From: an uncultured bacterium | Lineage (GTDB): Bacteria; CAYUVA01 | Length of the DNA: 33,488 nucleotides | Assembly: GCA_964448115.1 (NCBI GenBank) | Contig: CAYUVA010000008.1 | Span: 62,001-95,488 of the forward strand | Direction of reading: 5' to 3' | Part shown: in pieces, positions 4,634 to 31,793 of the stretch | Numbering within the stretch: position 1 is the first letter of the stretch | Layout of the letters: every line of letters starts with the position of its first letter | Program-made: the position numbers and the translations under genes | Notes under the pieces: generated by a model | The model's database searches: none | What the model saw: only the letters and a program-made list of their open reading frames with translations | Told to the model about the DNA's origin: nothing

Positions 4634-5896
4634 ATGGCAAATGAAACGAGTCTTTTTGATAGTGTAAAAAGGCAACTTGATAAAGCAGCGGATCTGATGA
4701 ACCTGGATCAGGATATCAGGCGGATTCTATCGCGCACGACAAACGAGATCGTGGTCAACTTCCCCGTCAAGATGGATGACGGCAGCATCCAGATGTTCAC
4801 CGGCTATCGGGTACAACACAACGATGTAATCGGTCCCTTCAAGGGTGGTCTTCGCTTTCATCCCCAGGTGAATATCGACGAGGTTCGCGCGCTGGCATCC
4901 TGGATGACCTGGAAGGGGGCACTGACCGGGATCCCCTTCGGCGGAGCAAAGGGTGGCATCCAGATGGATCCCCATAATTACTCACTGCGGGAGCTGGAGA
5001 GGATAACCAGAAGGTTCACTTATGCGCTAGGCAATGTGATCGGTCCTGAGTACGATATACCAGCGCCGGATGTTAATACTAATCCCCAGATCATGGCGTG
5101 GATTCTTGATACCTACCTCGGCATGATGCCTCCCCATGAGCGCAATCGCAGCGTGCATGTGGTTACTGGCAAGCCTCTTGGAGCTGGCGGCTCAAAAGGG
5201 AGAGACAAGGCAACCGGGCAAGGGCTTGTATTCACCATCGAACAATGGGCTAAAGATGCTAATTTCTCGCTCAATGGCGCTACCTACTTCGTACAGGGCT
5301 TCGGCAATGTCGGTTCATGGGCAGCGAGGCTACTGAAGCCTCACGGATCGGTGCTGATAGCGGTCGAGGATCACACCGGTGCGATCGCCAACCCGAACGG
5401 CATCGATGCTGATGAGCTTACCGCTTATGTAGCACAGCACGGTGGGATCAAGGGTTATGCCAAGGCGGAACCTATCGATCACCAGACATTCCTGAAGACC
5501 AAGGCGGATATATTCATCCCAGCAGCGCTGGAAACGCAGATCACAAAAGAGACCGCCACATGGCTCGATGTAAAGCTGGTGGCCGAGGGCGCTAATGGAC
5601 CGACCACCCCAGAGGGCGATGAGATCCTCCATGAGCGAGGTATCAACCTAATCCCGGATATCTTGTGCAACTCGGGTGGTGTCATCGTCAGCTACTTTGA
5701 GTGGCTGCAGAACAAGAGAAGCGAGTACTGGGACCTGGAGGATGTCGATCGCAAGCTGAACAAGATCATCGTTGATGCCTACAAGCGAGTCGGTGAGGCA
5801 GCAAATGAGTTCGATACAGACTGGAGATCGGCTGCATATATTGTGGCACTAAGGAAGTTGGAGCAGATATACAAGACGCGCGGCATCTTCCCCTGA
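4634..5896 (+). CDS. gdhA: Glutamate dehydrogenase (Glu/Leu/Phe/Val dehydrogenase family)
   Basis: GYRVQHN, GPFKGGLRFHP, GGAKGGI, DIPAPDVNT, VTGKP, QGFGNVG, EGANGPTT and GGVIVSYFEW. The RBS supports ATG 4634. Confidence 0.93.
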   Translation: MANETSLFDSVKRQLDKAADLMNLDQDIRRILSRTTNEIVVNFPVKMDDGSIQMFTGYRVQHNDVIGPFKGGLRFHPQVNIDEVRALASWMTWKGALTGIPFGGAKGGIQMDPHNYSLRELERITRRFTYALGNVIGPEYDIPAPDVNTNPQIMAWILDTYLGMMPPHERNRSVHVVTGKPLGAGGSKGRDKATGQGLVFTIEQWAKDANFSLNGATYFVQGFGNVGSWAARLLKPHGSVLIAVEDHTGAIANPNGIDADELTAYVAQHGGIKGYAKAEPIDHQTFLKTKADIFIPAALETQITKETATWLDVKLVAEGANGPTTPEGDEILHERGINLIPDILCNSGGVIVSYFEWLQNKRSEYWDLEDVDRKLNKIIVDAYKRVGEAANEFDTDWRSAAYIVALRKLEQIYKTRGIFP

Positions 5897-6075
5897 TAGA
5901 AGAAGATAATAGGTTTGCTATTGAAGTCTGGAGCATGAATGAAAATCGAGGGGTGGTACATGTTTTCACCCCTTAAATGATAATAAGAAACGGATCCTGG
6001 ATAAAATTGACCAGCTAATGGATCTATGCTATGTATTTAACATGACTAAACTAGTGTCTATGGGGAAGAGAACCG

Positions 6076-7554
6076 ATGTTTAGATATACATTAGCAGCGG
6101 CTGTATCATTACTGCTGACTATTGTGCCAGGACTCTCGCTTGCACAACAGGATCCGGGTGTCATGGGCAACTATGGTCAAACCTCCATCTTCGTTCGAAT
6201 AAACGACACGATAGATACAAATATCTACTATCCGGGGAGCGAGGGAGTAGTTGATCCATCCGGTGCCCCATATCCGGTTATAGTGCTTGCACATGCCCAG
6301 CTTGGCTTGCCGGCGCAACAGGTAGGCACCGGCGAACACCTTGCCAGTTGGGGGTACATAGTCCTTGTCCCGCGAGTTGCGGGCACCGACTACAACACAA
6401 ATGCCGGCATCATGCAGACCGTGCTCACCTATATAATAAATCAAAACGGCAACCCGATGAGCATGTGGTATCAGAATGTGAATACGACCAAGGTGGGCAT
6501 GGCGGGACACAGAAGGGGAGGATTATCTGCAATAATCGTTACTAAAAATGATGCTCGGGTAGATGTTTTATGCTTGCTCGACTGCCAGGATAATGCCGGA
6601 GAGGGAGCTGGCCACATGTTCGCCATCCATAAACCTGTGATGGTGGAGATGGCGGAGGCAAGCTCATGCAATGATAACGGCAGCGCTGCCCAGATATATA
6701 CCAATGCCTACTCCCCAAAGTACAAAATGAAACTGATCAATGGATCATCCTGCGACTTCGAGAACCCGACCACCGCACTATGCACCTTTTCCTGCGGTGA
6801 TGACCACGAGTATCGACATTATCTGGCCAAAAAGTACATGACAGCATGGTTCAACGCCTATCTGGCAGGCAATACAGCTTATTTCATCTATCTCACCGGC
6901 AGCTATGCTTATGATGATGTAGCCAACGGTTATGTAGAGATCGATCACCTGGGCGTTCCTTTAATTCCGACCTTTACGCCTACCGAGACCGTTGGACCGA
7001 CTAACACGGCGACTCCATCTCCGACTCGCACCGGGATGCCGACCTGGACTCCGACCAACACCTGGCCGGCAACCCCGACATTCACCCCGTCTCCGAGCAA
7101 GACGGTAACCCCGACCTTCACTCCTACCATAACCAAGTCAGCGACCCCTACGCCATCGGTCAATCCGAGCCACTCCTCCACACCGACGCCGACTCCATCA
7201 TTTACCCCGACCAAGAACCCGACCCCGGATCATCCATTCCCCATGATCTACTTAGGCGGTTACTGGGATACTTATATAGACCGAGCAAACGGCGGACAGA
7301 TGACATTGATCGCTTTTTTAGTTGATCGTGAGAACGATGTCGCTCGAGTCGATATCCTGTATAACGGGTATCCAACCGGCTTGATGTTGTTCGACAACGG
7401 CACCAATGGCGACTGGAAGCCGGGGGATAGTCTGCACACCTACTCGATGCTTATCGGCGCTGGGCTGCCGGAGAATAACTGGCTCTTGCAGCTACGCGCC
7501 ATCGACCTCGGTTCACGGCAAAGCGAGATGTGGCCATATCTGGTGGTCAAATAA
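6076..7554 (+). CDS. Secreted alpha/beta-hydrolase-fold protein (chlorophyllase/dienelactone-hydrolase-like, apparently catalytically degenerate) with a Pro/Thr linker and a C-terminal 'WPYL' domain
   Basis: Signal peptide (...PGLSLA-QQ), IYYP...YPVIVLAH, HLASWGYIVLVP, and a nucleophile elbow reading GHRRGG, then a long PT linker and a C-terminal domain shared with 13328..15199. Confidence 0.75.
   Translation: MFRYTLAAAVSLLLTIVPGLSLAQQDPGVMGNYGQTSIFVRINDTIDTNIYYPGSEGVVDPSGAPYPVIVLAHAQLGLPAQQVGTGEHLASWGYIVLVPRVAGTDYNTNAGIMQTVLTYIINQNGNPMSMWYQNVNTTKVGMAGHRRGGLSAIIVTKNDARVDVLCLLDCQDNAGEGAGHMFAIHKPVMVEMAEASSCNDNGSAAQIYTNAYSPKYKMKLINGSSCDFENPTTALCTFSCGDDHEYRHYLAKKYMTAWFNAYLAGNTAYFIYLTGSYAYDDVANGYVEIDHLGVPLIPTFTPTETVGPTNTATPSPTRTGMPTWTPTNTWPATPTFTPSPSKTVTPTFTPTITKSATPTPSVNPSHSSTPTPTPSFTPTKNPTPDHPFPMIYLGGYWDTYIDRANGGQMTLIAFLVDRENDVARVDILYNGYPTGLMLFDNGTNGDWKPGDSLHTYSMLIGAGLPENNWLLQLRAIDLGSRQSEMWPYLVVK
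6967..7230 (+). repeat. Pro/Thr-rich low-complexity linker (TPT/TPS repeats)
   Basis: PTFTPTETVGPTNTATPSPTRT...TPTPTPSFTPTKNPTPD in the translation. Confidence 0.85.
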
Positions 7555-7658
7555 GTTTTGGTTGCAACTCATCTGTGGTCAGAGAAATACCAGTAGGAGA
7601 TCCCTCCACGGTTACATCTACCAGTGCTTCCAAATCCTAGAAGCAGTGAAGCAATTAC

Positions 7659-8363
7659 TTAACACATAGATTGTATTTTATCCTCATATCGGCAGATGGG
7701 AGATAATGGGCAACCTTCACATAGGGGATTCTTTCTACAGTGCTGCTGGGCGCATCTGACTAGAAGGGCATGGTACTCATAATAAAGCCGTATGCCTTGG
7801 GGAAGATTGTCGATGAACAGGCTCTGTAGTCCTTTATAAGAGATGTTCGATTCACAAAGCCCCAACCTGCTTAATATCCGCCTGGTATAGGCATCGATTA
7901 CGAAAGTCGGCTTTTTAGCTGCATATAGGATAATAGAGTCAGCCGTCTCCTCCCCGATACCCCATATAGATAACAGCTTCTCCCTTAGCTCATCGACTGG
8001 TAGCTCGAATAGTTCATCAAGGCTCCCATTGAATTCACGGTATAAAAACCCGGTGAACTCCTTGAGCTTCCTCGCCTTGGCATTGTAATAGCCAGCAGGG
8101 AGGATATGCTTGATAAGCTGGTCTTTCTCTAGCTTATTGATACGCTCAACAGAAAGCAGATCCGCATCCTTGAGGTTTTCGAGTGCTTTTTTGACATTCG
8201 ACCAGTTCGTGTTCTGGGTCAGGATCGCGCCAACCACCACCTCGAAATCGCTTTCTCGCGGCCACCAGTCCATGTAGCCGAAGCGATCGTAAAGCCTGAC
8301 AAATATCTCCAGTAAGGTTTCTCGAAGCGATGATTGTCCTTGTTGCAATGACATGGGCAGCAA
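7659..8363 (-). CDS. HhH-GPD DNA glycosylase, endonuclease III-related, with a 4Fe-4S motif
   Basis: WWP...FEVVVGAILTQNTNW, HhH LLSIWGIGEETADSI, VIDAYTRR and C-terminal CRKNPLCEGCPLSPIC. The start may be ATG 8354. Confidence 0.88.
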   Translation of the reverse strand: MLPMSLQQGQSSLRETLLEIFVRLYDRFGYMDWWPRESDFEVVVGAILTQNTNWSNVKKALENLKDADLLSVERINKLEKDQLIKHILPAGYYNAKARKLKEFTGFLYREFNGSLDELFELPVDELREKLLSIWGIGEETADSIILYAAKKPTFVIDAYTRRILSRLGLCESNISYKGLQSLFIDNLPQGIRLYYEYHALLVRCAQQHCRKNPLCEGCPLSPICRYEDKIQSMC

Positions 8364-8366
8364 ATA

Positions 8367-9821
8367 TCACCGTTTGATTCTTCTTTTAAGATAAGTGCGC
8401 AACATGCCTAGGTACAGGGCTATATCCTTTGGCGAACGAATTGATTTTAACGCTCCGACAGCCTTTTTCCATACCGGGAATCCCTGCATATCAGCCCACT
8501 CGAAGAGTGCATCCTGAATCCTTTTCCAGGGAAGTTTATCAATAAAAATCGGGGCATATCCCTGTGTCGAGGGCAGCATCAGGACTCGATCATCTTTTGG
8601 ATTGGTCCATGTAAAATCTGCTGGCAGTATCCCTTTTTGTTTTGCCAAGATCTCCAACGCGGTGCCAGGATAGATATGAAGCAAACTCAACGAGATCTTG
8701 CCGGAAGCAGGCCACTGGCGGATCAATCGCATTGTCTGCTCCAGGTCCTGCTCGGTCTCTTCCGGGTGGCTGAAGATGAAGAACGGATTGGAGATGATCC
8801 CCAGCTCATCGCACCAGGCGCCTAACTGCCTGACCTGCTCAAGGTCTATTCGTTTGCCGATGACCTCATCGAGTATCCGCTGAGAGCCGGACTCAACGCC
8901 GAAACCGACGCTGAAGCAACCGGCTTCTTTCATGGTAGCCAGCAGCTCCCTATCCACCTGATCCACCCTGATCTCACAAAACCAGTTGAGCCTTAGTTTC
9001 TCCTTATCCAGCGCTTCGCAGAATCTATAGACCCTTTTTTTATTTATATTGAAGGTGTCATCGAATGGCCAGAGAAGCTCGATCTCATACCTATCAACCA
9101 GTTCCTTTATCTCCTCGATGACATTATCGATCGAGCGCATCCTGACCGCCTTTCCCCAAAACAGGCTCGAGGAGCAGAAGTTGCAACCAAATGGACAACC
9201 GCGGCTGGTCATGATGTTACCTCCAGCGAGAGAGCCTTTGCCAGGTACATCATAATAGAAGTTATACTGATCCATCGGCATTATCTCTCTTGCCGGGTGG
9301 GGCAATGAATCGAGTTCTTTGACCAGGGGACGGTCGAGATTATGGAGCACCTGTCCGCCCTCTCGGTAGCTTATCCCTTGTATATTTTCTAGCGAACCAC
9401 CCCCCAACAGACCCTTGATAAGCTCCGTGGACGTAAGCTCCCCCTCCCCGCGCACTATGAAATCGAGTTCCTCAATATGTTCAAGCGTATCCTGTGCTGC
9501 CAGTGATGGATGGGGACCGCCCGCTATGGTGATGACATCGGGAAGCATTTTTTTTATATGGCGGATGCTCTCGAAGCCGAAGAACCGGTTCTCTGTGGTG
9601 ATTGTAAAACCGGCTATGCGCGTCTTTTTCTCTCTTAGCAGTCGTACAATATCTTTATTGCTGAGCCTTTGCACATAAGCATCGATGATGCCTACTGAGA
9701 TCCCAGCCTTTTTCAGCGAGGCAGCAACATAACCGATGCCGAGCGCGGGCATGGACCTGCCCGACTTCCAGCGATCCGCATAGTACCCGCCGGGAGGCAC
9801 GATTAACATTACATCAGTCAT
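8367..9821 (-). CDS. Cobalamin-binding (class B) radical SAM protein, putative methyltransferase
   Basis: N-terminal B12-binding region (PALGIGYVAA, GGPHPS, VRGEGE), TSRGCPFGCNFC, GVESGSQRIL and YPGT. Confidence 0.9.
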   Translation of the reverse strand: MTDVMLIVPPGGYYADRWKSGRSMPALGIGYVAASLKKAGISVGIIDAYVQRLSNKDIVRLLREKKTRIAGFTITTENRFFGFESIRHIKKMLPDVITIAGGPHPSLAAQDTLEHIEELDFIVRGEGELTSTELIKGLLGGGSLENIQGISYREGGQVLHNLDRPLVKELDSLPHPAREIMPMDQYNFYYDVPGKGSLAGGNIMTSRGCPFGCNFCSSSLFWGKAVRMRSIDNVIEEIKELVDRYEIELLWPFDDTFNINKKRVYRFCEALDKEKLRLNWFCEIRVDQVDRELLATMKEAGCFSVGFGVESGSQRILDEVIGKRIDLEQVRQLGAWCDELGIISNPFFIFSHPEETEQDLEQTMRLIRQWPASGKISLSLLHIYPGTALEILAKQKGILPADFTWTNPKDDRVLMLPSTQGYAPIFIDKLPWKRIQDALFEWADMQGFPVWKKAVGALKSIRSPKDIALYLGMLRTYLKRRIKR

Positions 9822-10043
9822 GGCGTTCCTTGGATATTAACAACCGTATAATCATGGAGCTTATAGCAAACTTGGAGCAATATATAAAGAGATTATTTTA
9901 TGCAAAAACATATATATATAATGCTAAATAACAGAAAAACTTTCGATAATTATTGCTTTTATTTTAATAATCCCTTTTGTGAGAAATGTAGTTGTATTTT
10001 ATGCTTAAATATTTTAGCGTAATTTATAATGATGTCAGCAACC

Positions 10044-10691
10044 TCACGGCTTGGGTATCTTCTCCCAGTCCTTCTTGAAGCGGTCGATGCCGATATCGGT
10101 GAGCGGGTGCCTAGTTAGCTTCTCGATCACATTGAAGGGGATGGTCGCAATGTGTGCCCCTGCCCCTGCTGCCTCGAGGACATGCAGCGGGTGCCTGATG
10201 CTGGCTACGATTATTTCGGTCTCGTAGTAGTAATTATCGAAGATCAAGACTATCTCCCTGACGATGTCCATCCCCACATGGCTGATGTCGTCGAGCCTGC
10301 CGATGAATGGGCTGACATAAGCGGCGCCGGCTTTTGCTGCCAAAAGAGCCTGAATCGGGTTGAAGATCAGTGTCATGTTTACGGCTATGTCCTCGTCGGC
10401 AAGGTACTTGGTCGCCTTGAGTCCCTCAGTGGTCATCGGTATCTTGATCACTATATTCGAGGCTATGGAAGCTAGATCCTCAGCCTCGTTGATCATGCCC
10501 TGGTAGTCATCCGAGATAACCTCAGCGCTGACCGGTCCCTCGACTAGTTCACAGATTTCTTCCAGGCACTCGCGCATCATCTTTCCTGTCTTGGCGACCA
10601 GGCTGGGATTAGTAGTTACGCCGTCGAGCACCCCTAACTCGTGTGCCTCTTTGATTTCCTCTATCTTTGCCGTATCGATAAAGATCTTCAT
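10044..10691 (-). CDS. tal: Transaldolase (TalC/FSA-like family)
   Basis: [19 protein letters not shown], Schiff-base [13 protein letters not shown] (Phe, the transaldolase type) and [17 protein letters not shown]. Confidence 0.92.
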
Positions 10692-10721
10692 TATGATAAC
10701 CTCCGGTTATTTTAGGATGCG

Positions 10722-10750
10722 AACCTATCGCAAAATTAGCCTATTGTCAA
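10722..10750 (-). promoter_or_regulatory. Putative sigma70 promoter of tal
   Basis: Minus strand reads TTGACA (10750-10745), 17 nt, TAGGTT (10727-10722). Confidence 0.5.
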
Positions 10751-10776
10751 TGATAATCTATCTTTCAGCAGCGCAT

Positions 10777-11190
10777 TTATAGCCCTATGTTTTCCACCCT
10801 CCAGGTGCCATCATCATTGAGATATGCCATCAAGGGATGGATTTTTACCTGCGGGAAGCTGGAAAGAATGATCTCCCTCGCCTTTCTCATATCCTGTAAG
10901 TAGCGCTCAAGTTCCTCTTCGAGAGTGCTAAATGCCTTGCTACCACCATAAGCGCCACAGTCCTGGTGGTGCATAAGGTACACATCACTCACACCGTGTA
11001 AATCAACCGCTGTCTTGATATTAGAAAAGATTAATCCCTTGGGATTCTCAGCCAGCTCCTTGGTTACGCCGGCAACCGAGATTACATCGCAGTCGCCGAC
11101 CAGCTTCTCTTTCTCCATCCAGTTGTACACATCCTTTGTCATCCTGAAATCCATGCACTTTACCAGCACGCTGCTGCACTTTTTAGCCAT
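10777..11190 (-). CDS. Small beta-class-like carbonic anhydrase
   Basis: Zn-ligand motifs CMDFR and HHQDCGAY. RBS AAAGGAG. Confidence 0.8.
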   Translation of the reverse strand: MAKKCSSVLVKCMDFRMTKDVYNWMEKEKLVGDCDVISVAGVTKELAENPKGLIFSNIKTAVDLHGVSDVYLMHHQDCGAYGGSKAFSTLEEELERYLQDMRKAREIILSSFPQVKIHPLMAYLNDDGTWRVENIGL

Positions 11191-11205
11191 CGTCTTATCT
11201 CCTTT

Positions 11206-12150
11206 CTAGGTCGCTAATCTAAGGCTCCCCTTTCTTGTATCCATGATAACCCTGGCGCCGACCGGCAGGCACAGGTTCACCTTGCCGTGTCCGAAGGGGG
11301 CTTCCATTATGACCGGTATGTCAAGCCCGGCAAAGACATCCTCTATCACTTGGAGCATGGTCAGGCTCCGCTCCGGGTGCTCAGGCTCGCAACGATAGAG
11401 CCTGCCTACTATAAGCCCGGATATCTCCCTTAGATTAGCTGCCATGGCGAGATGGGTCAACATCCGGTGTATTGAATAAGGCTCCTCTCGTATATCCTCG
11501 AAGAAGAAGATATTCCCCTTGAGATCGGGCATGAACTCGGTGCCGATAAGATTGCACATCAGGGTCAGGCATCCGCCGACCAACAGCCCCTTGGCTAATC
11601 CGTGATGCAATATCTGGCACTGATAAGCCTTCTTACCTGCATCGATATCGAGGATTATATTGCCCGATTTGCCCTGGATTGTGGCACGGAAGTTCTGAAG
11701 CGTCGCCGGCTCCCTATGTTTGCCAAACGCGCTCTCTACCATGGGACCGTGGTATGTGACAAGGTTCGATTTTAAGGCTATGGCATTGAGCAGCACGGTA
11801 AGGTCGCTGAATCCCATGTAAAACTTGGGGTGGGAGGCGATGTATTCGTAATCGAGATGCCTAAGGTGCTCTATTGTGCCGAAGCCACCCCTAGATGCAA
11901 TGACCAGCCTGATTTCATCATCTTGAATGAAGCGCATAAGGTCGGAAAGTCGCTGCTCTCTCGTACCGGCAAAGTATCCCCATCGCTCATAGACATGCTG
12001 GCCGACTATGACTCTATATCCCTGTTTCTTAAGCCACTCGATGCCATCCTTGAGGTGTTTATCCCTTGAGCGCCCGGCTGGGGCAATGACCCCTATTTTA
12101 TCACCGGGCTTTAATGGTGGGGGAAACTCGGTAGCCACCTTAGCGATCAC
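11206..12150 (-). CDS. LD-carboxypeptidase (peptidase S66)
   Basis: LKPGDKIGVIAPA, RGGFG, GFSDLT (catalytic Ser), YHGP, GGCL, FFEDIRE and FGHG. Confidence 0.9.
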   Translation of the reverse strand: MIAKVATEFPPPLKPGDKIGVIAPAGRSRDKHLKDGIEWLKKQGYRVIVGQHVYERWGYFAGTREQRLSDLMRFIQDDEIRLVIASRGGFGTIEHLRHLDYEYIASHPKFYMGFSDLTVLLNAIALKSNLVTYHGPMVESAFGKHREPATLQNFRATIQGKSGNIILDIDAGKKAYQCQILHHGLAKGLLVGGCLTLMCNLIGTEFMPDLKGNIFFFEDIREEPYSIHRMLTHLAMAANLREISGLIVGRLYRCEPEHPERSLTMLQVIEDVFAGLDIPVIMEAPFGHGKVNLCLPVGARVIMDTRKGSLRLAT

Positions 12151-13177
12151 CTCCTCTCTTCGTATCGCCTATCAGGTCATCTTCTCGATTCGGATGAGTA
12201 ACAGTCTTGTCTTCGACATCGAGTATCATCTCATCAGCGCTCTGCTTGGTGAGTAGTAGTGCGATTACTCCGACCAGCACTGCGAACCATAGCGTGCAAG
12301 CCCTGATGATAAATGTGCTCGCTACCGCGGTTGATTCAGCCATCCCCTTGGTTACCAGCAGTCCGGTCATGCTCGTCTCGGTTAAGCCGATGCCGCCGGG
12401 GAGCATTGTAATGGCGCCGGCTATGGTCGATGCCGCATAGATGAAGCTCGCCTCAAAGACTCCCAGCATCAGGCTCCCCTCCTTGAAGCCACCAACTGTG
12501 ATATAAAAGCCGAGGCACTCGCAGAACCAGGCGATTACGCTGATAAAGGTCGCTATAATCAGTGGCTTGAAGGAGATTAACAAGGCGGTGGAAAGATAGA
12601 ACTCCTCTACCTTGTGGGCGAATTTGCCTATAAAGGGGAGCCTCTCGAAGACGCCGATGATAGCCAAAGAGAGCCGCCTGGAGCTTATTATGGTGATAAA
12701 AACGAGGCTGAGAGCTGCTGCCACGGCAAGCATCATGTAATCAAAATGATATATTACCACTCCAAAGATGCAGATTATGATAAGTGCGATAAAATCTGTG
12801 AGCCTATCGGCCACTACGATAGGCGATGAGCGTGCAATCGATATCCCTTTTTCCACCTTGAGCAGGTAGCTTTTCAGCACCTCGCCTAGCTTGCCCGGCG
12901 TAACCGACATGGCTAGCCCGGCAAGGAATATGCGTAAGCTGGTGAACAAGGGGAGGTTTACCTCAAGGTATCGCAAGTACATCTGCCACTTGAGGAAACG
13001 AGTGAGATAATTACCTAAAGCAAGCGCAAGTATGGGCAAGGTTAGATACCAGTGAAATCGTGTGAAGGAGCGCGCTGTTTCCTTGTAGTCTGCGTAGATG
13101 CTTAGAACCAGAAACACCAGCACACCGAGCGCCACCGATAAAATGAAACGCCGGCTGTATTTCCCAAAGACCTTCAT
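12140..13177 (-). CDS. Lysylphosphatidylglycerol-synthase TM-domain (flippase-like, UPF0104) membrane protein
   Basis: Polytopic, with RFLKW, TPGKLGEVLKSY, DRLTD, PGGIGLTE and IIRACTLWF. Confidence 0.85.
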   Translation of the reverse strand: MKVFGKYSRRFILSVALGVLVFLVLSIYADYKETARSFTRFHWYLTLPILALALGNYLTRFLKWQMYLRYLEVNLPLFTSLRIFLAGLAMSVTPGKLGEVLKSYLLKVEKGISIARSSPIVVADRLTDFIALIIICIFGVVIYHFDYMMLAVAAALSLVFITIISSRRLSLAIIGVFERLPFIGKFAHKVEEFYLSTALLISFKPLIIATFISVIAWFCECLGFYITVGGFKEGSLMLGVFEASFIYAASTIAGAITMLPGGIGLTETSMTGLLVTKGMAESTAVASTFIIRACTLWFAVLVGVIALLLTKQSADEMILDVEDKTVTHPNREDDLIGDTKRGGDR

Positions 13178-13327
13178 CTCGGCGCTTATAATACAGCAAG
13201 TAACAATTCATTCAAGAATTACATGGCTTCGGCAATTTTACCAATCGCTCCTGTTCTGCTAGGATAAAAAACGAGGGCTGCGTTGTTCTCATTCATTGTA
13301 AGATGTATAGAATCGAAAGGAAATATT

Positions 13328-15199
13328 ATGAAAATCAGAATACTGCTGTGCATTGCTGCGCTTGCCGTTGCTGTCAACTTTATCGCGGAACCATCGCTGG
13401 CTTCACAGTTGGAGGTTACCAACCGCATCGAGCATATCGAGAGTCTTTATCAACAAGGTGAGATAGACTTCGACCATTATATCCTTTTTCTGATCCAGGC
13501 AGTAAAAGCCCCACAACTGCTGCCCGATGAGATAAAGGCATGTCCCAAGGTATCCGATCCCCTCTTTTGCGCCACGCCGATCATGCGACTGGTGCAGTTC
13601 TCGAAGTATAAGCTATCCCCTGGCATAAGATCGCAAGTCGAGGCGCTATCCAGGAGACCGAGCGCTGAAGAATATGTCCAGTCCGAGCGCTATCCGTTCA
13701 GAGTCCATTACAACAAGGACCGGGAGAGCTATGCCAAGGCGTTGGTGCCGATGCTGGAACACTGCTGGGATGTAGAGGTCTTTGATTACGGATTTTATCC
13801 ACCGCATCCGGATCTGGGTGCTGGGGGGAGCGACGACCTCGATGTTTACCTGGTAGTCGGCGACTTCGGAGGGTATGTAGCGCCAGAGAGGAGCTATCCC
13901 TATACCGAGCGCACCGATTATACCTGCTATATGGCGATCAATCCACAGATAGGGCTGGGATGGGTGCCTTCGGTTATCGCCCATGAGTTCAACCATACCT
14001 GCCAGTTCGCAATGGATGCCATAGCCGCAGATTGCTTCTTCGAGAACACCGCTACCTTCATACAGGACGAGGTTTACCCGGATATCCCCTATCACTACGG
14101 ATTTTTATCCTACTTCCAGGGCATGCCCTATCTTTCAATTGATTACTTCAACTATGGACAGCCCTACCAGTACGGCGCATTTATGTTCCTGGAGTGGATC
14201 AGCGAATACTATGATGGCGGTTCTGCGGTGATCATCCGCAGGCTCTGGGAGGAAGGGATTCAAAACAATTGGACAAATGAGCCAGACTATCAAGATGTCT
14301 TTGATAGCATAGGATCACAGTATGGTGGCACTAACTTTGCCGATGCGCTGGAGCTTTTCACAACCGCCCGCTATTTCACCGCTGAAAATGATGATGGAAG
14401 ATTCAGCGAGGCTTATAAATGGGGAGGTCATGCCCGGCTCCGTCTAGCAGGTCGTTTTTCAGACGAGGACTACCCGGTCTATTATTTCCAGCCAAACAAT
14501 TTCCCTGCCGAATATGGCAGTAATACCTACGAGATCACCGCCAGCGGAGTTGAGCCTCTCACTATAACCTTCCGTGGTGCACAGCTCAATCTATGGAGAG
14601 TGAACCTGGTCGCCTTTTTCAACGATGGCAGACCGATACAGGAGATCCCAATGTCGATAAACTACGGCTGGGGGCAATATACATTCTATGACCTTGACCA
14701 GTATTCCAAGATAGTGATGTCGGTGCTGAACATGGGTGATGGTATCCACGATCCAGATAATAAGGACTGGGGCGCCAGCCAATACAGTCTCGATTTAGTC
14801 AGGGCTACTTCAACGGAGAATACGCCGACCCCTACGCCGAAGCCTACACCATCGGATTGGCGTGAGGTTGCACCGCAGATAATGCTCGGCGGATACATGG
14901 AGACCGATTTCCGGGCTGCTGAGGGTGGCTACATCCGGCTCATTGTCTATGTAATCGATCCCCAGGGGCGCGATGATATCAGCTCAGTTGAGCTTTATAG
15001 CGGCGCGCATTACATCGAGAGAATGAGGGATGATGGGATGAACCAAGACTTCGATTTCTATGATGGCATCTTCTCCAGCCTTTATACCTTTGAACCAGGA
15101 GTTACCATCCCCGCGATGCACCTGCTGGAGGTGAAAAGCTGGGATCTTTCAGCCAACCAGAGCAACACCTGGCCATACTTGCATGTGAGGGTGGACTAG
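13328..15199 (+). CDS. Secreted zinc metalloprotease (MXAN_6640-like) with a PT linker and a C-terminal 'WPYL' domain
   Basis: Signal peptide (MKIRILLCIAALAVAV...SLA), FRVHY, AHEFNHTCQF...FFENTAT (HExxH plus a distal Glu), YQYGAFMF, TPTPTPKPTP linker and the shared C-terminal domain. RBS AAAGGA precedes ATG 13328. Confidence 0.78.
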   Translation: MKIRILLCIAALAVAVNFIAEPSLASQLEVTNRIEHIESLYQQGEIDFDHYILFLIQAVKAPQLLPDEIKACPKVSDPLFCATPIMRLVQFSKYKLSPGIRSQVEALSRRPSAEEYVQSERYPFRVHYNKDRESYAKALVPMLEHCWDVEVFDYGFYPPHPDLGAGGSDDLDVYLVVGDFGGYVAPERSYPYTERTDYTCYMAINPQIGLGWVPSVIAHEFNHTCQFAMDAIAADCFFENTATFIQDEVYPDIPYHYGFLSYFQGMPYLSIDYFNYGQPYQYGAFMFLEWISEYYDGGSAVIIRRLWEEGIQNNWTNEPDYQDVFDSIGSQYGGTNFADALELFTTARYFTAENDDGRFSEAYKWGGHARLRLAGRFSDEDYPVYYFQPNNFPAEYGSNTYEITASGVEPLTITFRGAQLNLWRVNLVAFFNDGRPIQEIPMSINYGWGQYTFYDLDQYSKIVMSVLNMGDGIHDPDNKDWGASQYSLDLVRATSTENTPTPTPKPTPSDWREVAPQIMLGGYMETDFRAAEGGYIRLIVYVIDPQGRDDISSVELYSGAHYIERMRDDGMNQDFDFYDGIFSSLYTFEPGVTIPAMHLLEVKSWDLSANQSNTWPYLHVRVD

Positions 15200-15232: not shown

Positions 15233-15826
15233 ATGGGCGAATGGGATTATCTTGATGAGCACACGCTAAGCGGAATCGCATCAGGTAAACCCCAATATAT
15301 ATCCCTTTTATACACTAAGCTGAAGATCCCCCACAGCACGGTGATGCGCATTATCTCCAAGCAATCATGGGGCTTTGGTGCTGACGTGGAGGATATTTTT
15401 CAGGAGATATTCATCGATAGAATACTACCTGCCATGCGTTGTTTCCAGGCACAAGGGGATGAAGAGCCAGCTAACCAGGCAGGCAAGCTCATCGTTGACA
15501 TAACCAAGAAAGCCTGCATCGACTTCTATCGCAAGGCGAGGGCATCCAAGCGCGGCGCCGACCTTCGCATCAATCTCGATGATGAGGTGATAGAGCGCAT
15601 CTTCGCCGAAGATACATCGCCACTGGAGGTCTCGATAAAACAGCAGAGGAGACAGAAACTTTACGAGGCTATTTCGAGGCTCGACCCTATTTGCCGTGAT
15701 GTGATCAGCTTGCGCCTTCAGGAGTTCACCTCATCAGAGATCGCTAGGCGGCTAAATATGAAGGTCAGCGCGGTGGAGACGAGGATCTTTCGCTGCCTAA
15801 AAACACTACGAAACCTAATAAAGTAA
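15233..15826 (+). CDS. ECF-type RNA polymerase sigma-70 factor
   Basis: Region 2 (DVEDIFQEIF...ACIDFYRK) and region 4 HTH (LDPICRDVISLR...SSEIARRLNMKVSAVETRIFR); 197 aa. Confidence 0.85.
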   Translation: MGEWDYLDEHTLSGIASGKPQYISLLYTKLKIPHSTVMRIISKQSWGFGADVEDIFQEIFIDRILPAMRCFQAQGDEEPANQAGKLIVDITKKACIDFYRKARASKRGADLRINLDDEVIERIFAEDTSPLEVSIKQQRRQKLYEAISRLDPICRDVISLRLQEFTSSEIARRLNMKVSAVETRIFRCLKTLRNLIK

Positions 15827-19233: not shown

Positions 19234-20334
19234 ATGCTCGAACACTTAAAATACCTGCGCTACCTTCCCAAGCTCTTCTTCAAGGAGGGAAGCCTCCCTT
19301 TTTACTTGATCCACTTCGTAACCGCAGATTGCACATGCCGTTGCGGGCATTGTCTTCTCGGCGAGAGGAAGGTCAAGCTGGATGAGCTGACCATCGATGA
19401 GATCGAGCGCATCACCCAAAGCCTTCCTTCGGTGCTTTTCATGTTTATCACCGGTGGCGAGCCTTTTTTGAGGGAGGATCTCCCCGATATTATAGAGCTT
19501 TATTATCGCAACTGCCGGGTGCGCAAGTTCCAGATCCCCTCCAACGGCTCACTGACAGACATGACCATGGAAACAATAATAAAAGCCCTTGAGCGCATAA
19601 AAGATGCACACCTGAGCGTAACCTTGAGCCTGGATGCAGTGGGGGAAGAGCATGATCGCGTGCGAGCGCATCCTGGATTGTTCGACAAGGCGACCACCAC
19701 CTTCAGGGAGCTAAGCAAGCTCGAGAAGCTGTATGACAACTTCAATGTCAATGTAACCATCACCGTCTCGGCGAATAACCAGGACCACCTGGTGGATATT
19801 TATCACTATGCCCGTGATGTACTAGGCGCAAAGAATATCTTCAACACCATAGTGCGCGGCAATCCAAGGGACCCAGCAACCTTACAGGTTGATCCAGCCA
19901 AGTTTGCACAGCTTAATGATCTAATGGAGCAGGATCTGCTTAAGCACAGGCTCAAAGGATACATGCGCTTTCCATTCAGCCACTTCGTGGATGCAAAGAA
20001 TCTACTCAGCAGAAGGCTCATCGAACGAATCTATAGCGAGGGTCGTTATTTCATTCCCTGTTATGCGGGCAGGATAAGCATGGTGTTGTTTTCGGATGGC
20101 GATGTGCATCCCTGCGAGGTTCTGGGCAGATCCTACGGCAATGTGAGGGACTTTAACTATGATGTGCGCAAGCTCTGGTTCAACCCAAAGGCGCAACAGA
20201 TAAAGCGCTTCATACAAGAATCGAGGTGCTTCTGCACCCACGAGTGCTTTATCACCCACAATATACTTTTCAATCCAAGGATGCTTCCTAGGCTGATGAG
20301 CAAATACCTGGCTTTGAGACTCGGGAGGCTATAA
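19234..20334 (+). CDS. Radical SAM protein with a Twitch/SPASM-like C-terminal domain
   Basis: CTCRCGHC, TGGEPFLRED, SNG, CYAGR...GDVHPCE...CFCTHEC. Confidence 0.9.
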   Translation: MLEHLKYLRYLPKLFFKEGSLPFYLIHFVTADCTCRCGHCLLGERKVKLDELTIDEIERITQSLPSVLFMFITGGEPFLREDLPDIIELYYRNCRVRKFQIPSNGSLTDMTMETIIKALERIKDAHLSVTLSLDAVGEEHDRVRAHPGLFDKATTTFRELSKLEKLYDNFNVNVTITVSANNQDHLVDIYHYARDVLGAKNIFNTIVRGNPRDPATLQVDPAKFAQLNDLMEQDLLKHRLKGYMRFPFSHFVDAKNLLSRRLIERIYSEGRYFIPCYAGRISMVLFSDGDVHPCEVLGRSYGNVRDFNYDVRKLWFNPKAQQIKRFIQESRCFCTHECFITHNILFNPRMLPRLMSKYLALRLGRL

Positions 20335-21459
20335 TTGCTGAGTTGGCGCTTATTTAAATCCCTGTCCATGCAATTTTTGACTCGCAGAAATCCCACTTAC
20401 ATACATTATTTCATTACCTATCGCTGCAATCTGCGCTGTCTTATGTGCGATGTTCCCAATCACTCGGTTGAACATGAGCTTGATTTGGATGAAATCCGAA
20501 GGCTTGCCGGTATCCTGGCAGAGATGAACGCAGGCATAATAAACATCGGCGGCGGAGAGCCGTTCCTCAGAAAGGATCTTGCGGATATCGTTGGCATCTT
20601 CAGTCGGCATGGGTTCTCGGTGCGCATACAGACCAACGGCTATGCGATAACCGAAGCGGCTCTTGACCATATCTTCAAGCACAGACTCGGCGGAATCTCG
20701 TTATCCATAGACTCCTTAGATCCCAAGATTCAAGGTATGATCCACAAAAGAGACGATGCACTAGATGTAATTGCATCCAAGATCGCGCTGCTGAGCAAGT
20801 ACCTATCGGCATCAAATACCTATCCTATATTGAACATCGTTGTAAGTCGCTTAAACTATCGAGACTTACGCGCTCTGATCGATTTCGCAGCCCGCATCGG
20901 CTGGTATTGTAGTTTCGCGCCGGTGCACCTCGATGAGCACAAGCAAGGGATGTTTCGCAGTTTCCACCAACGATTGCGCTTCACCAAGCAAGATATGCCT
21001 GAGCTTAGGCATACCTATGAACAGCTCGTGAGGCTGAAGAAAGCCGGGGCAGCCATTGCAAATTCAAGCAAGTATCTTGCCAATAGCATGAATTTCTTCG
21101 AGGATAAGAAACCGTATTTCAACTGCCGGGCGGGGGAGTCGTATTTCCTGGTGCGCCCGGATGGAGGCTTTGCATTATGTAATGACCTCGATAGCTTCGA
21201 TAACATTCTGCGCAGGGGATTCATCGATGATTTTCGATCTCCATCCTTCAGGGATAGATGTCGCAAAGCGGTCTCTGCTTGTCCTGGTTGCTATTATCCC
21301 TGCTGGGCTGAGATGGAGCTGCTTTCTTCACCAAAGGTTATCTGTGAGCGTATGAAGACAACCATTCCTCAGCTCATAACCAAGCGACCGACCCTGACAA
21401 AGGAGCAGCTCATCGAGCTAATGCGTGAATGTCAAGATCATCATAATTTGCATGATTAA
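20335..21459 (+). CDS. Radical SAM protein with a Twitch/SPASM-like C-terminal domain
   Basis: CNLRCLMC, GGGEPFLRKD, QTNG, CRAG...PDGGFALC...CPGCYYPC. The TTG start abuts the previous stop (alternative ATG 20368). Confidence 0.88.
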   Translation: MLSWRLFKSLSMQFLTRRNPTYIHYFITYRCNLRCLMCDVPNHSVEHELDLDEIRRLAGILAEMNAGIINIGGGEPFLRKDLADIVGIFSRHGFSVRIQTNGYAITEAALDHIFKHRLGGISLSIDSLDPKIQGMIHKRDDALDVIASKIALLSKYLSASNTYPILNIVVSRLNYRDLRALIDFAARIGWYCSFAPVHLDEHKQGMFRSFHQRLRFTKQDMPELRHTYEQLVRLKKAGAAIANSSKYLANSMNFFEDKKPYFNCRAGESYFLVRPDGGFALCNDLDSFDNILRRGFIDDFRSPSFRDRCRKAVSACPGCYYPCWAEMELLSSPKVICERMKTTIPQLITKRPTLTKEQLIELMRECQDHHNLHD

Positions 21460-21536
21460 TAATTTTCATGCCCTAAGCTTTGGGTTGACAATGTTAGATA
21501 AAGCACTTAAAGAAGAGAATCCAGGTACTCGATGAA

Positions 21537-22898
21537 ATGAGAAAAAGTTTACCAATAACACTAATACTATCAGCAATCCTAATAGTAGTAGGGCTGTTAT
21601 GGCATTTCATTATTGGTCGTCCCCCTTATAATTTGCTGTTAATCTCGGTTGATACGCTGCGCAGTGATGCCTTGGGCAGCTATGGAAATCCAAGCACCTA
21701 CACCCCTACCACCAACAGGCTCTCTAGCATGGGAACAACATTCTATAATGCCTACACTCATGTGCCTATTACTGCACCGTCCTTCTCCACCATATTCACC
21801 TCTAAATATCCCCTACAGCACGGGGTATTGAACAATGATTACGATCTTAACCTTTCCTACACCACTCTAGCGGAGACATTGCATGAGCAGGGCTATAGTA
21901 CCGGGGCGGTGATCAGCACCCATGTGCTCGATGGCAGGTTCGGCTTCTCGCAGGGCTTTGATTACTTCAACGATCAGTTCTACTATCGTCCGGCAGAAAA
22001 GACCACGCAAAGAGCCATTGAATGGCTTAAAAGATTGAGCGGGTCAAAGATCAAGCAACCGTTCTTTTTATGGGTTCACTACATCGATCCCCATTCCCCT
22101 TATAAAGTTCCGGATAGCCCCTATCGAAAGCTATATTTAGATGAACCTTTGCCCCCTGAGATAGAAGGAATGGGAGCGGAATTATGTCAAATATATGTTG
22201 AGAAGCTCAAGTTAACTCCCTATGTAACCCAGATCTATCGCAACCTTTACTACCAGGAGGTTAGCTACTGCGACTTTCATATCGGAAAAATCTTGTCTTT
22301 TATAACAGAAAGAGGGCTACTAAATAGGACTCTCATCGTGTTTCACGCCGATCATGGCGAGGTGCTATATGAGCACGATTATTACTTCGGACACGCATTT
22401 TCGCTCAATGAGGGGAGCATTCGTATCCCCATGACATTCATTTTGCCTGGTATCATTCCGCAAGGTAAGATCCTTGAAGACAATGTTCAAACCATTGATA
22501 TAATGCCGACAATATTGGATATACTTGGCATAAAGCCCCGCTTGAAGCTGGAGGGTATCTCTCTACTATCAGCTATTTTAGGCAAGGGAAATCTGCCGCA
22601 AAGGTCGATCTTATCACAGACATATCAACCGGAGGGGGAGTACGATAAGGATGCGCTGATAGCTTATGGCTACAAGCTGATCATCGAACCGGAACACCAA
22701 ATAGAAAAGTTGTATAACCTATTTTCGGATGCACAGGAGATAAGCAACTTGATCGAGATCGAGGAAAAGAAGGCTCGGCAGTTGAAAACGATATTGCAGG
22801 ATGAATTGTCTCGACTTCCATCCCGGGAATCACACAAGAGACCTAAGGTTGACCGGTGGCGTTTGGATCTTCTTCGAAGCATGGGCTATGCGCATTGA
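21537..22898 (+). CDS. Membrane-anchored sulfatase-like hydrolase/transferase (alkaline phosphatase superfamily)
   Basis: N-terminal TM, NLLLISVDTLRSD, ITAPSFST, QGFDYF, PFFLWVHYIDPHSPY, ADHGE, DIMPTIL and C-terminal LRSMGY. Confidence 0.88.
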   Translation: MRKSLPITLILSAILIVVGLLWHFIIGRPPYNLLLISVDTLRSDALGSYGNPSTYTPTTNRLSSMGTTFYNAYTHVPITAPSFSTIFTSKYPLQHGVLNNDYDLNLSYTTLAETLHEQGYSTGAVISTHVLDGRFGFSQGFDYFNDQFYYRPAEKTTQRAIEWLKRLSGSKIKQPFFLWVHYIDPHSPYKVPDSPYRKLYLDEPLPPEIEGMGAELCQIYVEKLKLTPYVTQIYRNLYYQEVSYCDFHIGKILSFITERGLLNRTLIVFHADHGEVLYEHDYYFGHAFSLNEGSIRIPMTFILPGIIPQGKILEDNVQTIDIMPTILDILGIKPRLKLEGISLLSAILGKGNLPQRSILSQTYQPEGEYDKDALIAYGYKLIIEPEHQIEKLYNLFSDAQEISNLIEIEEKKARQLKTILQDELSRLPSRESHKRPKVDRWRLDLLRSMGYAH

Positions 22899-28751: not shown

Positions 28752-29903
28752 TTAGTAATTCTCGGTTGTCTCGGTAATTGTTTGCAATCTTCTGGCAGTG
28801 CCGGCATATTCTCTGTCATCGGGAGATATACCGAGCATCTGTAGCAGTTCATCCGGCTTCTGAGAGTAACCGAGTGCATCCTCCTTGGTAATCGTCTTTC
28901 GTTGTATCAGATCGACCAGGGACTGATTGAAGGTGAGCATACCATACCTGTCCTGCCCAGTCTGCATGGTACCATAAATCTGGTGTATTTTATCCTCTCT
29001 TATAAGGTTCCGTATCGCTGAATTAGGCACCATGATCTCCAGACATAGCTGGCGTCCCTGTCCAGAAGCCTTGGGGATAAGTGCTTGGGAGACAACTCCC
29101 TCCAGGACAAAGGCGAGCTGTGCCCTAATCTGCGGCTGTTCATGCGGGGGAAACACATCGATAATGCGGTGTATGGATTGATCGCAGGAGTTGGTATGCA
29201 GCGTGGAGAAGGTCAGATGCCCGGTCTCGGAGCACTGTAAAGCAAGGCGGATGGTCTCCGGATCACGCATCTCACCGACCAGAATTACATCAGGATCTTG
29301 TCTGAGGATAGAGCGCAGGGCAGCGGCGAATGATCTCGTATCAGCACCCAGCTCCCTCTGATTGATCAGCGCTTTTTTATGTGAATGAAGATACTCGATA
29401 GGATCCTCGATGGTGATTATATGTACATTCCTTTCCTCATTGATCTTGTTAATCACCGCAGCAAGAGTGGTGGATTTACCGCTGCCGGTAGGACCGGTTA
29501 CTAAAACAAGTCCCTTGGGTCGCATAGCAAAGTCCTGAACCACCTTGGGCAGCCCCAGCGACTCGAAAGACCTAATCTTCCAGGGTATTTGTCGAACTGC
29601 GATTGCAACTGCACTTCTTTGATAAAAGACATTGCATCTGAAGCGGCTCAATCCCTTTAAGCCGAAGGAAAAGTCAAGCTCATAGCTCTCCTCGAACTTC
29701 TTTTTTTGCATATCGGTCATAATGCTGTAGGCTAATCGCTTGGTGTCGCGTTGTGTTAATGGCTTTTCCCCCTCGATATTCATCAGCTTTCCATCTATGC
29801 GTATGCGAGGGGGGGCATTGGTGGTGATATGCAGATCGGTTGCCCCCTCGCCTATCATGATGCGAAGGAGCTCTTCCATTGTCGAACTTCTGGCTTCTGC
29901 CAT
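28752..29903 (-). CDS. pilT: Type IV pilus retraction ATPase PilT
   Basis: DLHI, GPTGSGKSTT, TIEDPIEY, LRQDPDVILVGEMRD, TLHT and the AIRNLIRE motif. Confidence 0.95.
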   Translation of the reverse strand: MAEARSSTMEELLRIMIGEGATDLHITTNAPPRIRIDGKLMNIEGEKPLTQRDTKRLAYSIMTDMQKKKFEESYELDFSFGLKGLSRFRCNVFYQRSAVAIAVRQIPWKIRSFESLGLPKVVQDFAMRPKGLVLVTGPTGSGKSTTLAAVINKINEERNVHIITIEDPIEYLHSHKKALINQRELGADTRSFAAALRSILRQDPDVILVGEMRDPETIRLALQCSETGHLTFSTLHTNSCDQSIHRIIDVFPPHEQPQIRAQLAFVLEGVVSQALIPKASGQGRQLCLEIMVPNSAIRNLIREDKIHQIYGTMQTGQDRYGMLTFNQSLVDLIQRKTITKEDALGYSQKPDELLQMLGISPDDREYAGTARRLQTITETTENY

Positions 29904-29906
29904 AAT

Positions 29907-31793
<1,887 letters not shown>

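Follow-up and report, generated by a model that had tools for sequence, protein, structure and literature searches.

Within a 33,488-nucleotide stretch of contig CAYUVA010000008.1 from an uncultured bacterium (assembly GCA_964448115.1, positions 62,001 to 95,488 of the forward strand; the whole of this stretch is called the window below), we identified two unrelated exported proteins, an alpha/beta-hydrolase-fold protein (gene 1) and an HExxH metalloprotease (gene 2), that end in copies of one C-terminal domain bounded by the motifs LGGY and WPYL. The domain belongs to a large family in which it usually occurs as a tandem pair, and we tentatively propose that this single or paired module, termed here the X/X-X cassette, retains exported proteins on the cell surface or within a matrix. 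The two genes comprise the following features, with the basis of each assignment in parentheses.

6076..7554, + strand: gene 1, exported alpha/beta-hydrolase-fold protein with the C-terminal domain, 492 residues (open reading frame and translation)
6076..6144, + strand: predicted Sec signal peptide of gene 1, MFRYTLAAAVSLLLTIVPGLSLA followed by QQ, cut site between SLA and QQ (by eye from the sequence)
6250..6861, + strand: hydrolase-fold domain of gene 1, residues 59-262 (Pfam DLH)
6967..7239, + strand: Pro/Thr-rich linker of gene 1, residues 298-388, 91 residues, 58% Pro+Thr (composition)
7240..7551, + strand: C-terminal domain copy 1, 104 residues, predicted immunoglobulin-like (Ig-like) beta-sandwich, divergent choice-of-anchor X family (BLASTP, hidden Markov model (HMM), AlphaFold)
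13328..15199, + strand: gene 2, exported HExxH metalloprotease (MXAN_6640-like) with the C-terminal domain, 623 residues (open reading frame, NCBIfam NF045524)
13328..13402, + strand: predicted Sec signal peptide of gene 2, MKIRILLCIAALAVAVNFIAEPSLA followed by SQ, cut site between SLA and SQ (by eye from the sequence)
13982..13996, + strand: HEFNH zinc-binding motif of gene 2, residues 219-223 (sequence)
14807..14872, + strand: short Pro/Thr linker of gene 2, residues 494-515, 22 residues (composition)
14873..15196, + strand: C-terminal domain copy 2, 108 residues, same family as copy 1 (BLASTP, HMM)

Copy 1 reads PMIYLGGY...WPYLVVK and copy 2 PQIMLGGY...WPYLHVRVD. Aligned over their full length by BLASTP, they share 37 of 108 positions (34% identity, 57% positives, E 3e-16), a likeness far above chance, and the two domains are homologous. 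The enzyme domains ahead of them differ. The gene 1 protein matches Pfam DLH at 27.6 bits (cutoff 21), with a PETase-like model below its cutoff and PETase-like alpha/beta hydrolases as the best solved relatives (E about 1e-7), while the gene 2 protein matches NCBIfam NF045524 (MXAN_6640_HExxH) over residues 131-358 at 97 bits and E 1.5e-27, under that model's cutoff of 140. The start of gene 2 was taken as the ATG at 13328, with an alternative TTG at 13283, its linker reads TSTENTPTPTPKPTPSDWREVA, and the signal peptides of both proteins were assigned by reading their N-termini, with no predictor program. Neither protein possesses a C-terminal hydrophobic helix, the chains stopping 3 and 5 residues past WPYL. 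In all of these respects, namely a terminal domain shared by two unrelated proteins, signal peptides, different enzyme domains, Pro/Thr linkers and the lack of a terminal membrane helix, an earlier note on this DNA was borne out.

Two observations concern gene 1 itself. Its nucleophile elbow reads GHRRGG, compared with GHSQGG in the PETase-like 9hl5_A, placing Arg146 at the position of the catalytic Ser; the codon (AGA, 6511-6513) is a single base away from AGY. Arg146 may reflect either an assembly error or a hydrolase fold that serves in binding without catalysis. Also, a Gly/Val-rich open reading frame of 89 residues on the - strand (6945-7214) corresponds to the Pro/Thr linker read in reverse and is most likely no gene.

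A profile of the two window copies was scored exhaustively against 1.84 billion representative proteins, and retrieved 555 protein clusters at E<=1e-3, 274 at <=1e-10 and 47 at <=1e-30, the best relatives reaching E values down to 1e-45. Little was added by searches of proteins through a word index, whose yield with the two-copy profile, or with a 40-copy profile on longer proteins, was limited to the window proteins themselves or to 14 matches. Within the window a six-frame HMM scan detected no third copy. The earlier note would have given up its reading had these two copies proved to be the only ones in the genome; they are the only two in the window, and the many relatives that it anticipated are found elsewhere.

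From these matches we examined the best 150 of the 555 together with the second window protein (n=151). Local HMM scans identified two tandem copies in 128 of these proteins, one copy in 21 (including both window proteins), three copies in one and eight partial copies in one, such that the usual form is a tandem pair and not the single terminal tag first envisaged. The last copy lies 0 to 8 residues from the C-terminus in 121 proteins and 33-35 residues before the end in three, the remainder being a degenerate-looking further copy in two of these three. The other 27 continue past the cassette, with tails of 51-200 residues in 12 and of more than 200 residues in 15, the latter containing PKD, choice-of-anchor-D-like and other domains. 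The expectation that nearly all copies would be C-terminal thus held for the majority and failed for this minority. Where the copy is terminal, the chain ends exactly 3 residues after WPYL in 60 of 107 cases and 4 residues after it in 41. A hydrophobic helix or other recognisable C-terminal anchor was found in none of the 151 (tails inspected by eye; NCBIfam scans of 88).

At the other end of these proteins, the first residue is Met in 132 of 149, and by a crude test the N-terminus resembles a signal peptide in 105 of 149, many of the others being fragments. The 30 residues upstream of the first copy contain 12% Pro and 12% Thr, compared with 6.6% and 7.8% overall. As anticipated for a domain worn by signal-peptide proteins of many kinds, the N-terminal parts of 56 relatives are very diverse, comprising at least 10 unrelated Pfam families and 15 proteins without any Pfam match. 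Among the domains identified are FG-GAP, subtilases, M14 carboxypeptidase, lamin-tail, BNR/sialidase-like propellers, beta-helices, PQQ propellers, prenyltransferase toroid, PKD and Big; C25 peptidases also occur in the family.

The consensus of the domain is P.I..AGY.dT......GG.lt.lA.V.Dp.g.di..VElyy.G.PTG..L.DDG..GDf.agDg.yg....i.Pg.p.G.YLLEl.A.D..Gn.S..WPYL.i, in which D29, D52, G54, G57, D58, D63 and D89 are invariant or nearly so and the five Asp residues lie in loops. Tandem copies are joined by a linker of about 38 residues (range 21-71) that is not Pro/Thr-rich (e.g. residues 123-157 of P0019) and that bears a conserved Trp, present in at least half of the 30 proteins aligned. The pair is an ancient arrangement that travels as one piece: the copy nearest to a given copy was its partner in the same protein in only 2 of 222 cases, and a copy in the same position of another protein in 142 of 222. 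N-terminal and C-terminal copies are weakly distinguished on the tree (49 label changes, compared with 73-78 in five shuffles), and no motif was found in the terminal copy that the inner copy lacks. Given this weak specialisation, a division of the pair into two functionally distinct halves was considered and dropped.

With respect to known models, NCBIfam NF041940 (choice-of-anchor X) is a 37-position model matching the central DDGxxGDxxAGDGxY loop and the next strand. A resemblance of the inner loop to this model had been remarked on earlier, and the window copies do score 13.9 and 14.9 bits against it (E 0.034 and 0.016), under the cutoff of 25 and neither at E<=0.01. Among the 56 relatives, 38 reach or exceed the 25-bit cutoff, 13 are listed below it and 5 are unlisted; in a second set of 32 proteins the corresponding numbers are 14, 6 and 12; and 36 of 40 isolated copies match at E<=0.01. 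Because relatives retrieved by the window profile reach the NF041940 cutoff inside the domain, the LGGY...WPYL domain is, on the criterion of sequence, a full-length, divergent form of the choice-of-anchor X family and not a family without a name. The name itself was not found in the literature searched (8.4 million papers and preprints), from which the cassette, widespread in a narrow set of uncultured lineages and only partly modelled, is likewise absent.

Pfam lacks a model spanning the domain, whether in the window proteins, the relatives or the 40 copies. Big_7 reaches its cutoff within a copy in L014 and P0033, Big_7 and DUF4625 are each listed for 2 of the 40 copies, and other sporadic weak matches among relatives are to Big_13 and Big_3. 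Membership of several sorting or accessory families was considered and rejected. The C-terminal domain (CTD) of type IX secretion system (T9SS) cargo, represented by TIGR04183 and PF18962, gave no match at E<=1 in the window proteins and none among the 40 copies, and a phmmer search with one T9SS CTD (from P0169) gave no match. FlgD_ig, PPC and PKD found no match to the domain among Pfam models in the same two sets, nor did Pfam dockerin, a family further set apart by the all-beta, seven-strand model described below. Two proteins carry the X core in other settings. P0157 (879 residues), a distant core relative, possesses a signal peptide, four X-core repeats without AGY or WPYL flanks, a C-terminal membrane helix and a basic tail, which is the classical domain-ahead-of-anchor layout; in the 5363-residue protein P0080 the core forms internal repeats.

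An AlphaFold2 model of copy 1, generated from a 40-sequence alignment, is an all-beta, seven-stranded Ig-like sandwich with a mean predicted local distance difference test (pLDDT) score of 89.1 and a predicted template modelling (pTM) score of 0.80, the DNGTNGDWKPGD loop being less certain. The best Foldseek matches in the PDB for the single domain are Ig-like (E-set) domains with template modelling (TM) scores of 0.45-0.53 and E>=6e-3, including sulfite dehydrogenase, chitinase A, Fn3-like modules of CbhA, PPAD and CBM21. No T9SS CTD entry was among the 50 fold matches listed, and a fold search of viral predicted structures returned generic FN3 matches only. The prediction is therefore a confident one that lacks a close solved relative. 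A tandem model (P0019, 264 residues; pLDDT 89.5, pTM 0.84) places a helix in the linker (138-147) and suggests that the pair forms a fixed two-domain unit. Domain by domain this model matches titin Z1Z2, SiiE (E 1.1e-5) and CbhA at E about 1e-5, whereas in overall arrangement it does not resemble these tandem Ig proteins (TM 0.2-0.27; 0.23-0.25 for SiiE/Bap-type adhesins). Taken with the loop Asp residues, a weak and non-significant sequence likeness to SiiE and Bap repeats fits a module that is probably stabilised by Ca2+.

Further clues come from proteins related to the window protease, for which ten homologues were found and their C-terminal ends compared. P0160 ends in the same X domain; P0163 and P0166 end in choice-of-anchor Z and MYXO-CTERM domains (MYXO-CTERM at 26.6 bits, cutoff 20, and at 19.8 bits); three others have Cys/hydrophobic/basic tails by eye; P0169 carries a T9SS type A domain (31.2 bits, cutoff 23); and of the remainder one has a PQQ propeller end and two have nothing recognisable. 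Since homologues end in the X domain, MYXO-CTERM or T9SS type A, the same enzyme is surface-sorted elsewhere, and these ends show the C-terminal slot of the protease to be where different lineages apparently place their sorting device. Also identified in the family were two C25 cysteine peptidases with propeptides, P0142 (1312 residues, tandem cassette) and P0153 (1636 residues, single copy), the cassette lying at the C-terminus of each. Against PorU-related NCBIfam models P0142 aligns over 750 of 879 positions (E 1e-64), although its 219 bits fall short of the cutoff of 450. Among solved structures both peptidases are closest to the T9SS sortase PorU; for P0142 the best match is 6za2_A (E 6.8e-10), with Lys-gingipain behind it (E 1.7e-5). 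PorU carries a T9SS CTD. This cassette-wearing, PorU-like enzyme might process the cargo of a parallel sorting route or be one more cargo itself, and we do not yet count it as evidence for either.

Genomes were scanned with the pattern SD[LIM]WPYLT[IV], derived from a 12-sequence alignment, which identified 18 loci in 15 assemblies, three contigs having two loci each. Seven of these loci are titled candidate division CSSED10-310, one Candidatus Coatesbacteria and ten 'uncultured bacterium' or 'bacterium'; two family proteins are also named CSSED10-310 by their source. Named hits are thus concentrated in one lineage, as the earlier note had supposed, within the reach of a narrow pattern that occurs in 16 of the 151 family proteins. 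As the pattern covers about a tenth of the family, extrapolation gives some ten or more cassette proteins in each genome. The phylum CSSED10-310, which is Gram-negative, rare and without cultured members, is placed beside Acidobacteriota; the paper describing it makes no mention of the domain (PMC8248873).

Cassette genes are dispersed among housekeeping genes, the conserved neighbours at the related loci being SelA, FabF, KhpA, Mfd and three proteins without a Pfam match. At nine of these loci (L001-L008 and L018, several titled CSSED10-310) a protein of about 190 residues, comprising a signal peptide, about 80 residues and one domain copy, is encoded at about 5700-6318 in a conserved order: FabF, a 282-residue protein, KhpA, the ~190-residue domain protein, 489- and 595-residue proteins, and Mfd.

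Within the window, genes 1 and 2 lie 5.8 kb apart on the + strand, surrounded by housekeeping genes, and encode the only two clear signal-peptide proteins, both of them domain-bearing. Neighbours include glutamate dehydrogenase, radical S-adenosylmethionine (SAM) enzymes, transaldolase, LD-carboxypeptidase and Kdo transferase, and from this gene set the host can be taken as diderm. A sigma factor gene of the extracytoplasmic function type (Sigma70_r4_2; 15233-15826, + strand) begins 34 bases past the gene 2 stop and may be co-transcribed with the metalloprotease gene. At 19234-22898 (+ strand) a sulfatase gene, encoding a protein with a membrane-anchor-like segment at its N-terminus, is immediately preceded by two radical-SAM genes, one of which encodes a SPASM domain, a layout resembling the anaerobic sulfatase-maturase arrangement. 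Two adjoining T2SSE/PilB-type secretion ATPase genes, one with an MshEN domain, occupy 28752-31793 (- strand); these are type IV pilus or type II secretion components some 13 kb from the nearer cassette gene. A promoter and terminator scan of the window gave results close to shuffle expectation, no tRNA and no Rfam match was found in it, and the best match outside the domain between its proteins and those of the related loci is a PP2C (39%).

Taken together, these findings suggest a tentative reading, to which we assign a probability of roughly 0.42 and which is the most likely of those considered: that by binding non-covalently the X/X-X cassette retains exported proteins on the cell surface or within a matrix. 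Under this proposal, the window proteins would be exported by Sec, and each would then present a flexible Pro/Thr spacer followed by one seven-stranded Ig-like sandwich of about 105 residues. In relatives, a two-copy cassette with a helix-containing linker of about 38 residues would close diverse exported proteins of CSSED10-310 and a few other uncultured lineages. The cassette would act as a non-catalytic retention or display module, putatively stabilised by Ca2+ at its five near-invariant loop Asp residues, which after export would attach to some constituent of the envelope or matrix and so hold enzymes and adhesin-like proteins at the cell surface. The earlier idea of a lineage-specific export or attachment tag is retained here in part: terminal bias, lineage concentration and protease homologues ending in MYXO-CTERM or T9SS type A speak for it, while the generic Ig-like fold does not.

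Several observations weigh against retention by the cassette. A preprint (bioRxiv 10.1101/2023.03.06.531300) describes, for choice-of-anchor A, the convention that such a domain belongs to surface proteins held by alternative anchors and is not itself an anchor; that layout, with alternative sorting signals behind the domain, was found in 0 of 151 proteins. The X core can serve as a plain ectodomain module, as in P0157, and 27 of the 151 proteins extend past the cassette. The fold is a generic Ig-like sandwich for which Foldseek gave no PDB match at E<=1e-3 as a single domain, and Ca2+ binding would be deduced solely from the conserved Asp residues. The scan pattern gives a partial picture of the lineages, and no ligand, partner or machinery was found at the 18 related loci or in the window, where the neighbours are housekeeping genes.

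A rather unlikely alternative is that the domain is an outer-membrane export or sorting signal akin to the T9SS CTD, recognised by a new translocon, with a PorU-like C25 peptidase perhaps processing and attaching the cargo. The cassette lies at the extreme C-terminus in 121 of 151 proteins, typically ending 3-4 residues past WPYL, and its seven-strand sandwich is of about the size of a T9SS CTD, itself described in PMC11285876 and PMC4804311 as a 3+4 beta-sandwich export signal. The protease homologue P0169 has its T9SS type A domain at the same place, the family includes two C25 peptidases, and P0142 is closest to PorU among solved structures. Fold and terminal position would thus fit the window proteins, whereas 128 of 151 relatives carry two copies, the terminal one without a motif of its own, and 27 continue beyond the cassette. 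No Pfam or NCBIfam model for T9SS, FlgD_ig or other sorting domains matches, and the 50 fold matches listed include no T9SS CTD. According to PMC11611037 and PMC5445135, T9SS is limited to Bacteroidetes, whereas CSSED10-310 sits beside Acidobacteriota (PMC8248873). Neither the 33-kb window nor the 18 loci of about 12 kb encode T9SS machinery (PorK/L/M/N, Sov, PorU/V), and with no other machinery seen beside them the uncharacterised secretion system that the earlier note had implied could only be postulated. The wider claim, that the cassette is the cargo tag of a new sorting or surface-display route in CSSED10-310 and allied lineages, parallel to T9SS, MYXO-CTERM and PEP-CTERM and with P0142 and P0153 as candidate processing enzymes, we hold to be unlikely. 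Repeats in tandem are usual where a binding module gains from avidity, and not in export signals, and we favour a binding module over an export signal because of the doubling, the occasional internal position and the lack of a signature in the terminal copy.

It is also rather doubtful that the cassette is a plain accessory Ig-like module, i.e. a spacer, stabiliser or substrate-binding element comparable to PKD, FN3 or PPC, with no role in localisation. A generic E-set sandwich with best fold matches at TM 0.45-0.53, the sporadic weak matches to Big_7, Big_13, DUF4625 and Big_3, the internal X core of P0157 (ahead of its membrane helix) and of P0080, and the choice-of-anchor convention quoted above, in which the domain is not the anchor, would all be consistent with this. 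However, a plain spacer should be neither so strictly terminal nor end so exactly, and the cassette occurs on enzymes and non-enzymes of at least 10 unrelated families within a narrow set of lineages. It also occurs on proteins of about 190 residues that consist of little beyond a signal peptide and one copy and are encoded in conserved synteny, and the pair moves as a unit. Improbable, finally, is a self-associating or docking module, in which paired copies would pack against each other, while a lone copy would pair in trans with that of another protein or dock on a scaffold, and exported proteins would so assemble into a coat or multi-enzyme complex. The tandem model, with its pTM of 0.84 over 264 residues and structured linker helix, argues for a fixed pair, and a lone copy is present in 21 of the 151 proteins, both window proteins among them; but no scaffold protein with partner repeats was found, and the all-beta fold is unlike dockerin.

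If the cassette does govern protein location, it would label the greater part of the proteins exported by a phylum that only metagenomes have revealed, among them peptidases, sialidase-like proteins and FG-GAP/lamin-tail proteins. It would then provide a simple sequence handle for predicting the surface and secreted proteins of this phylum, and would represent one more lineage-specific answer to protein display in diderms outside Bacteroidota. Should it be merely an accessory Ig-like module, the result would help annotation but go no further. Annotation would gain from a full-length model, given that Pfam has none, that NCBIfam covers a third of the domain and that divergent copies such as those of the window are missed.

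Comparison with known systems places the cassette among several types of extracellular module. Like the T9SS type A CTD, it is a small Ig-like sandwich of seven strands that closes the chain of signal-peptide proteins whose N-terminal parts vary widely and whose genes are scattered, and a T9SS domain is found at the same position in one homologue of the window protease; unlike that CTD, it shows no sequence match to it, is usually doubled and sometimes internal, and occurs in a lineage outside Bacteroidota. With the Ca2+-binding BIg repeats of giant adhesins (SiiE, 2yn3; Bap, 7dm0; NCBIfam Ca_tandemer) it shares the second-half pattern dG.y...G.Y.l.v.A.D.aGN.S and conserved loop Asp residues, the domain profile matching the SiiE and Bap repeats at non-significant E values of 0.067 and 0.17 in a PDB sequence search; giant adhesins, however, string tens of repeats along a rod, whereas the cassette is a terminal pair. 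The PPC and PKD extensions of secreted peptidases are also beta-sandwich modules, often doubled, behind subtilases and metalloproteases, but no such model matches and the cassette also ends many non-peptidases. Dockerin resembles it as a C-terminal tag with conserved acidic loops on diverse exported enzymes behind Pro/Thr linkers, but is a small, helical, duplicated EF-hand-like module, in contrast to an all-beta sandwich for which no cohesin-like partner is known. The closest relative remains the choice-of-anchor X model, which spans about a third of the ~105-residue domain and includes none of the P.I..AGY or WPYL flanks. Its name implies a choice of anchors behind the domain, whereas in the subfamily described here the domain pair itself forms the C-terminus.

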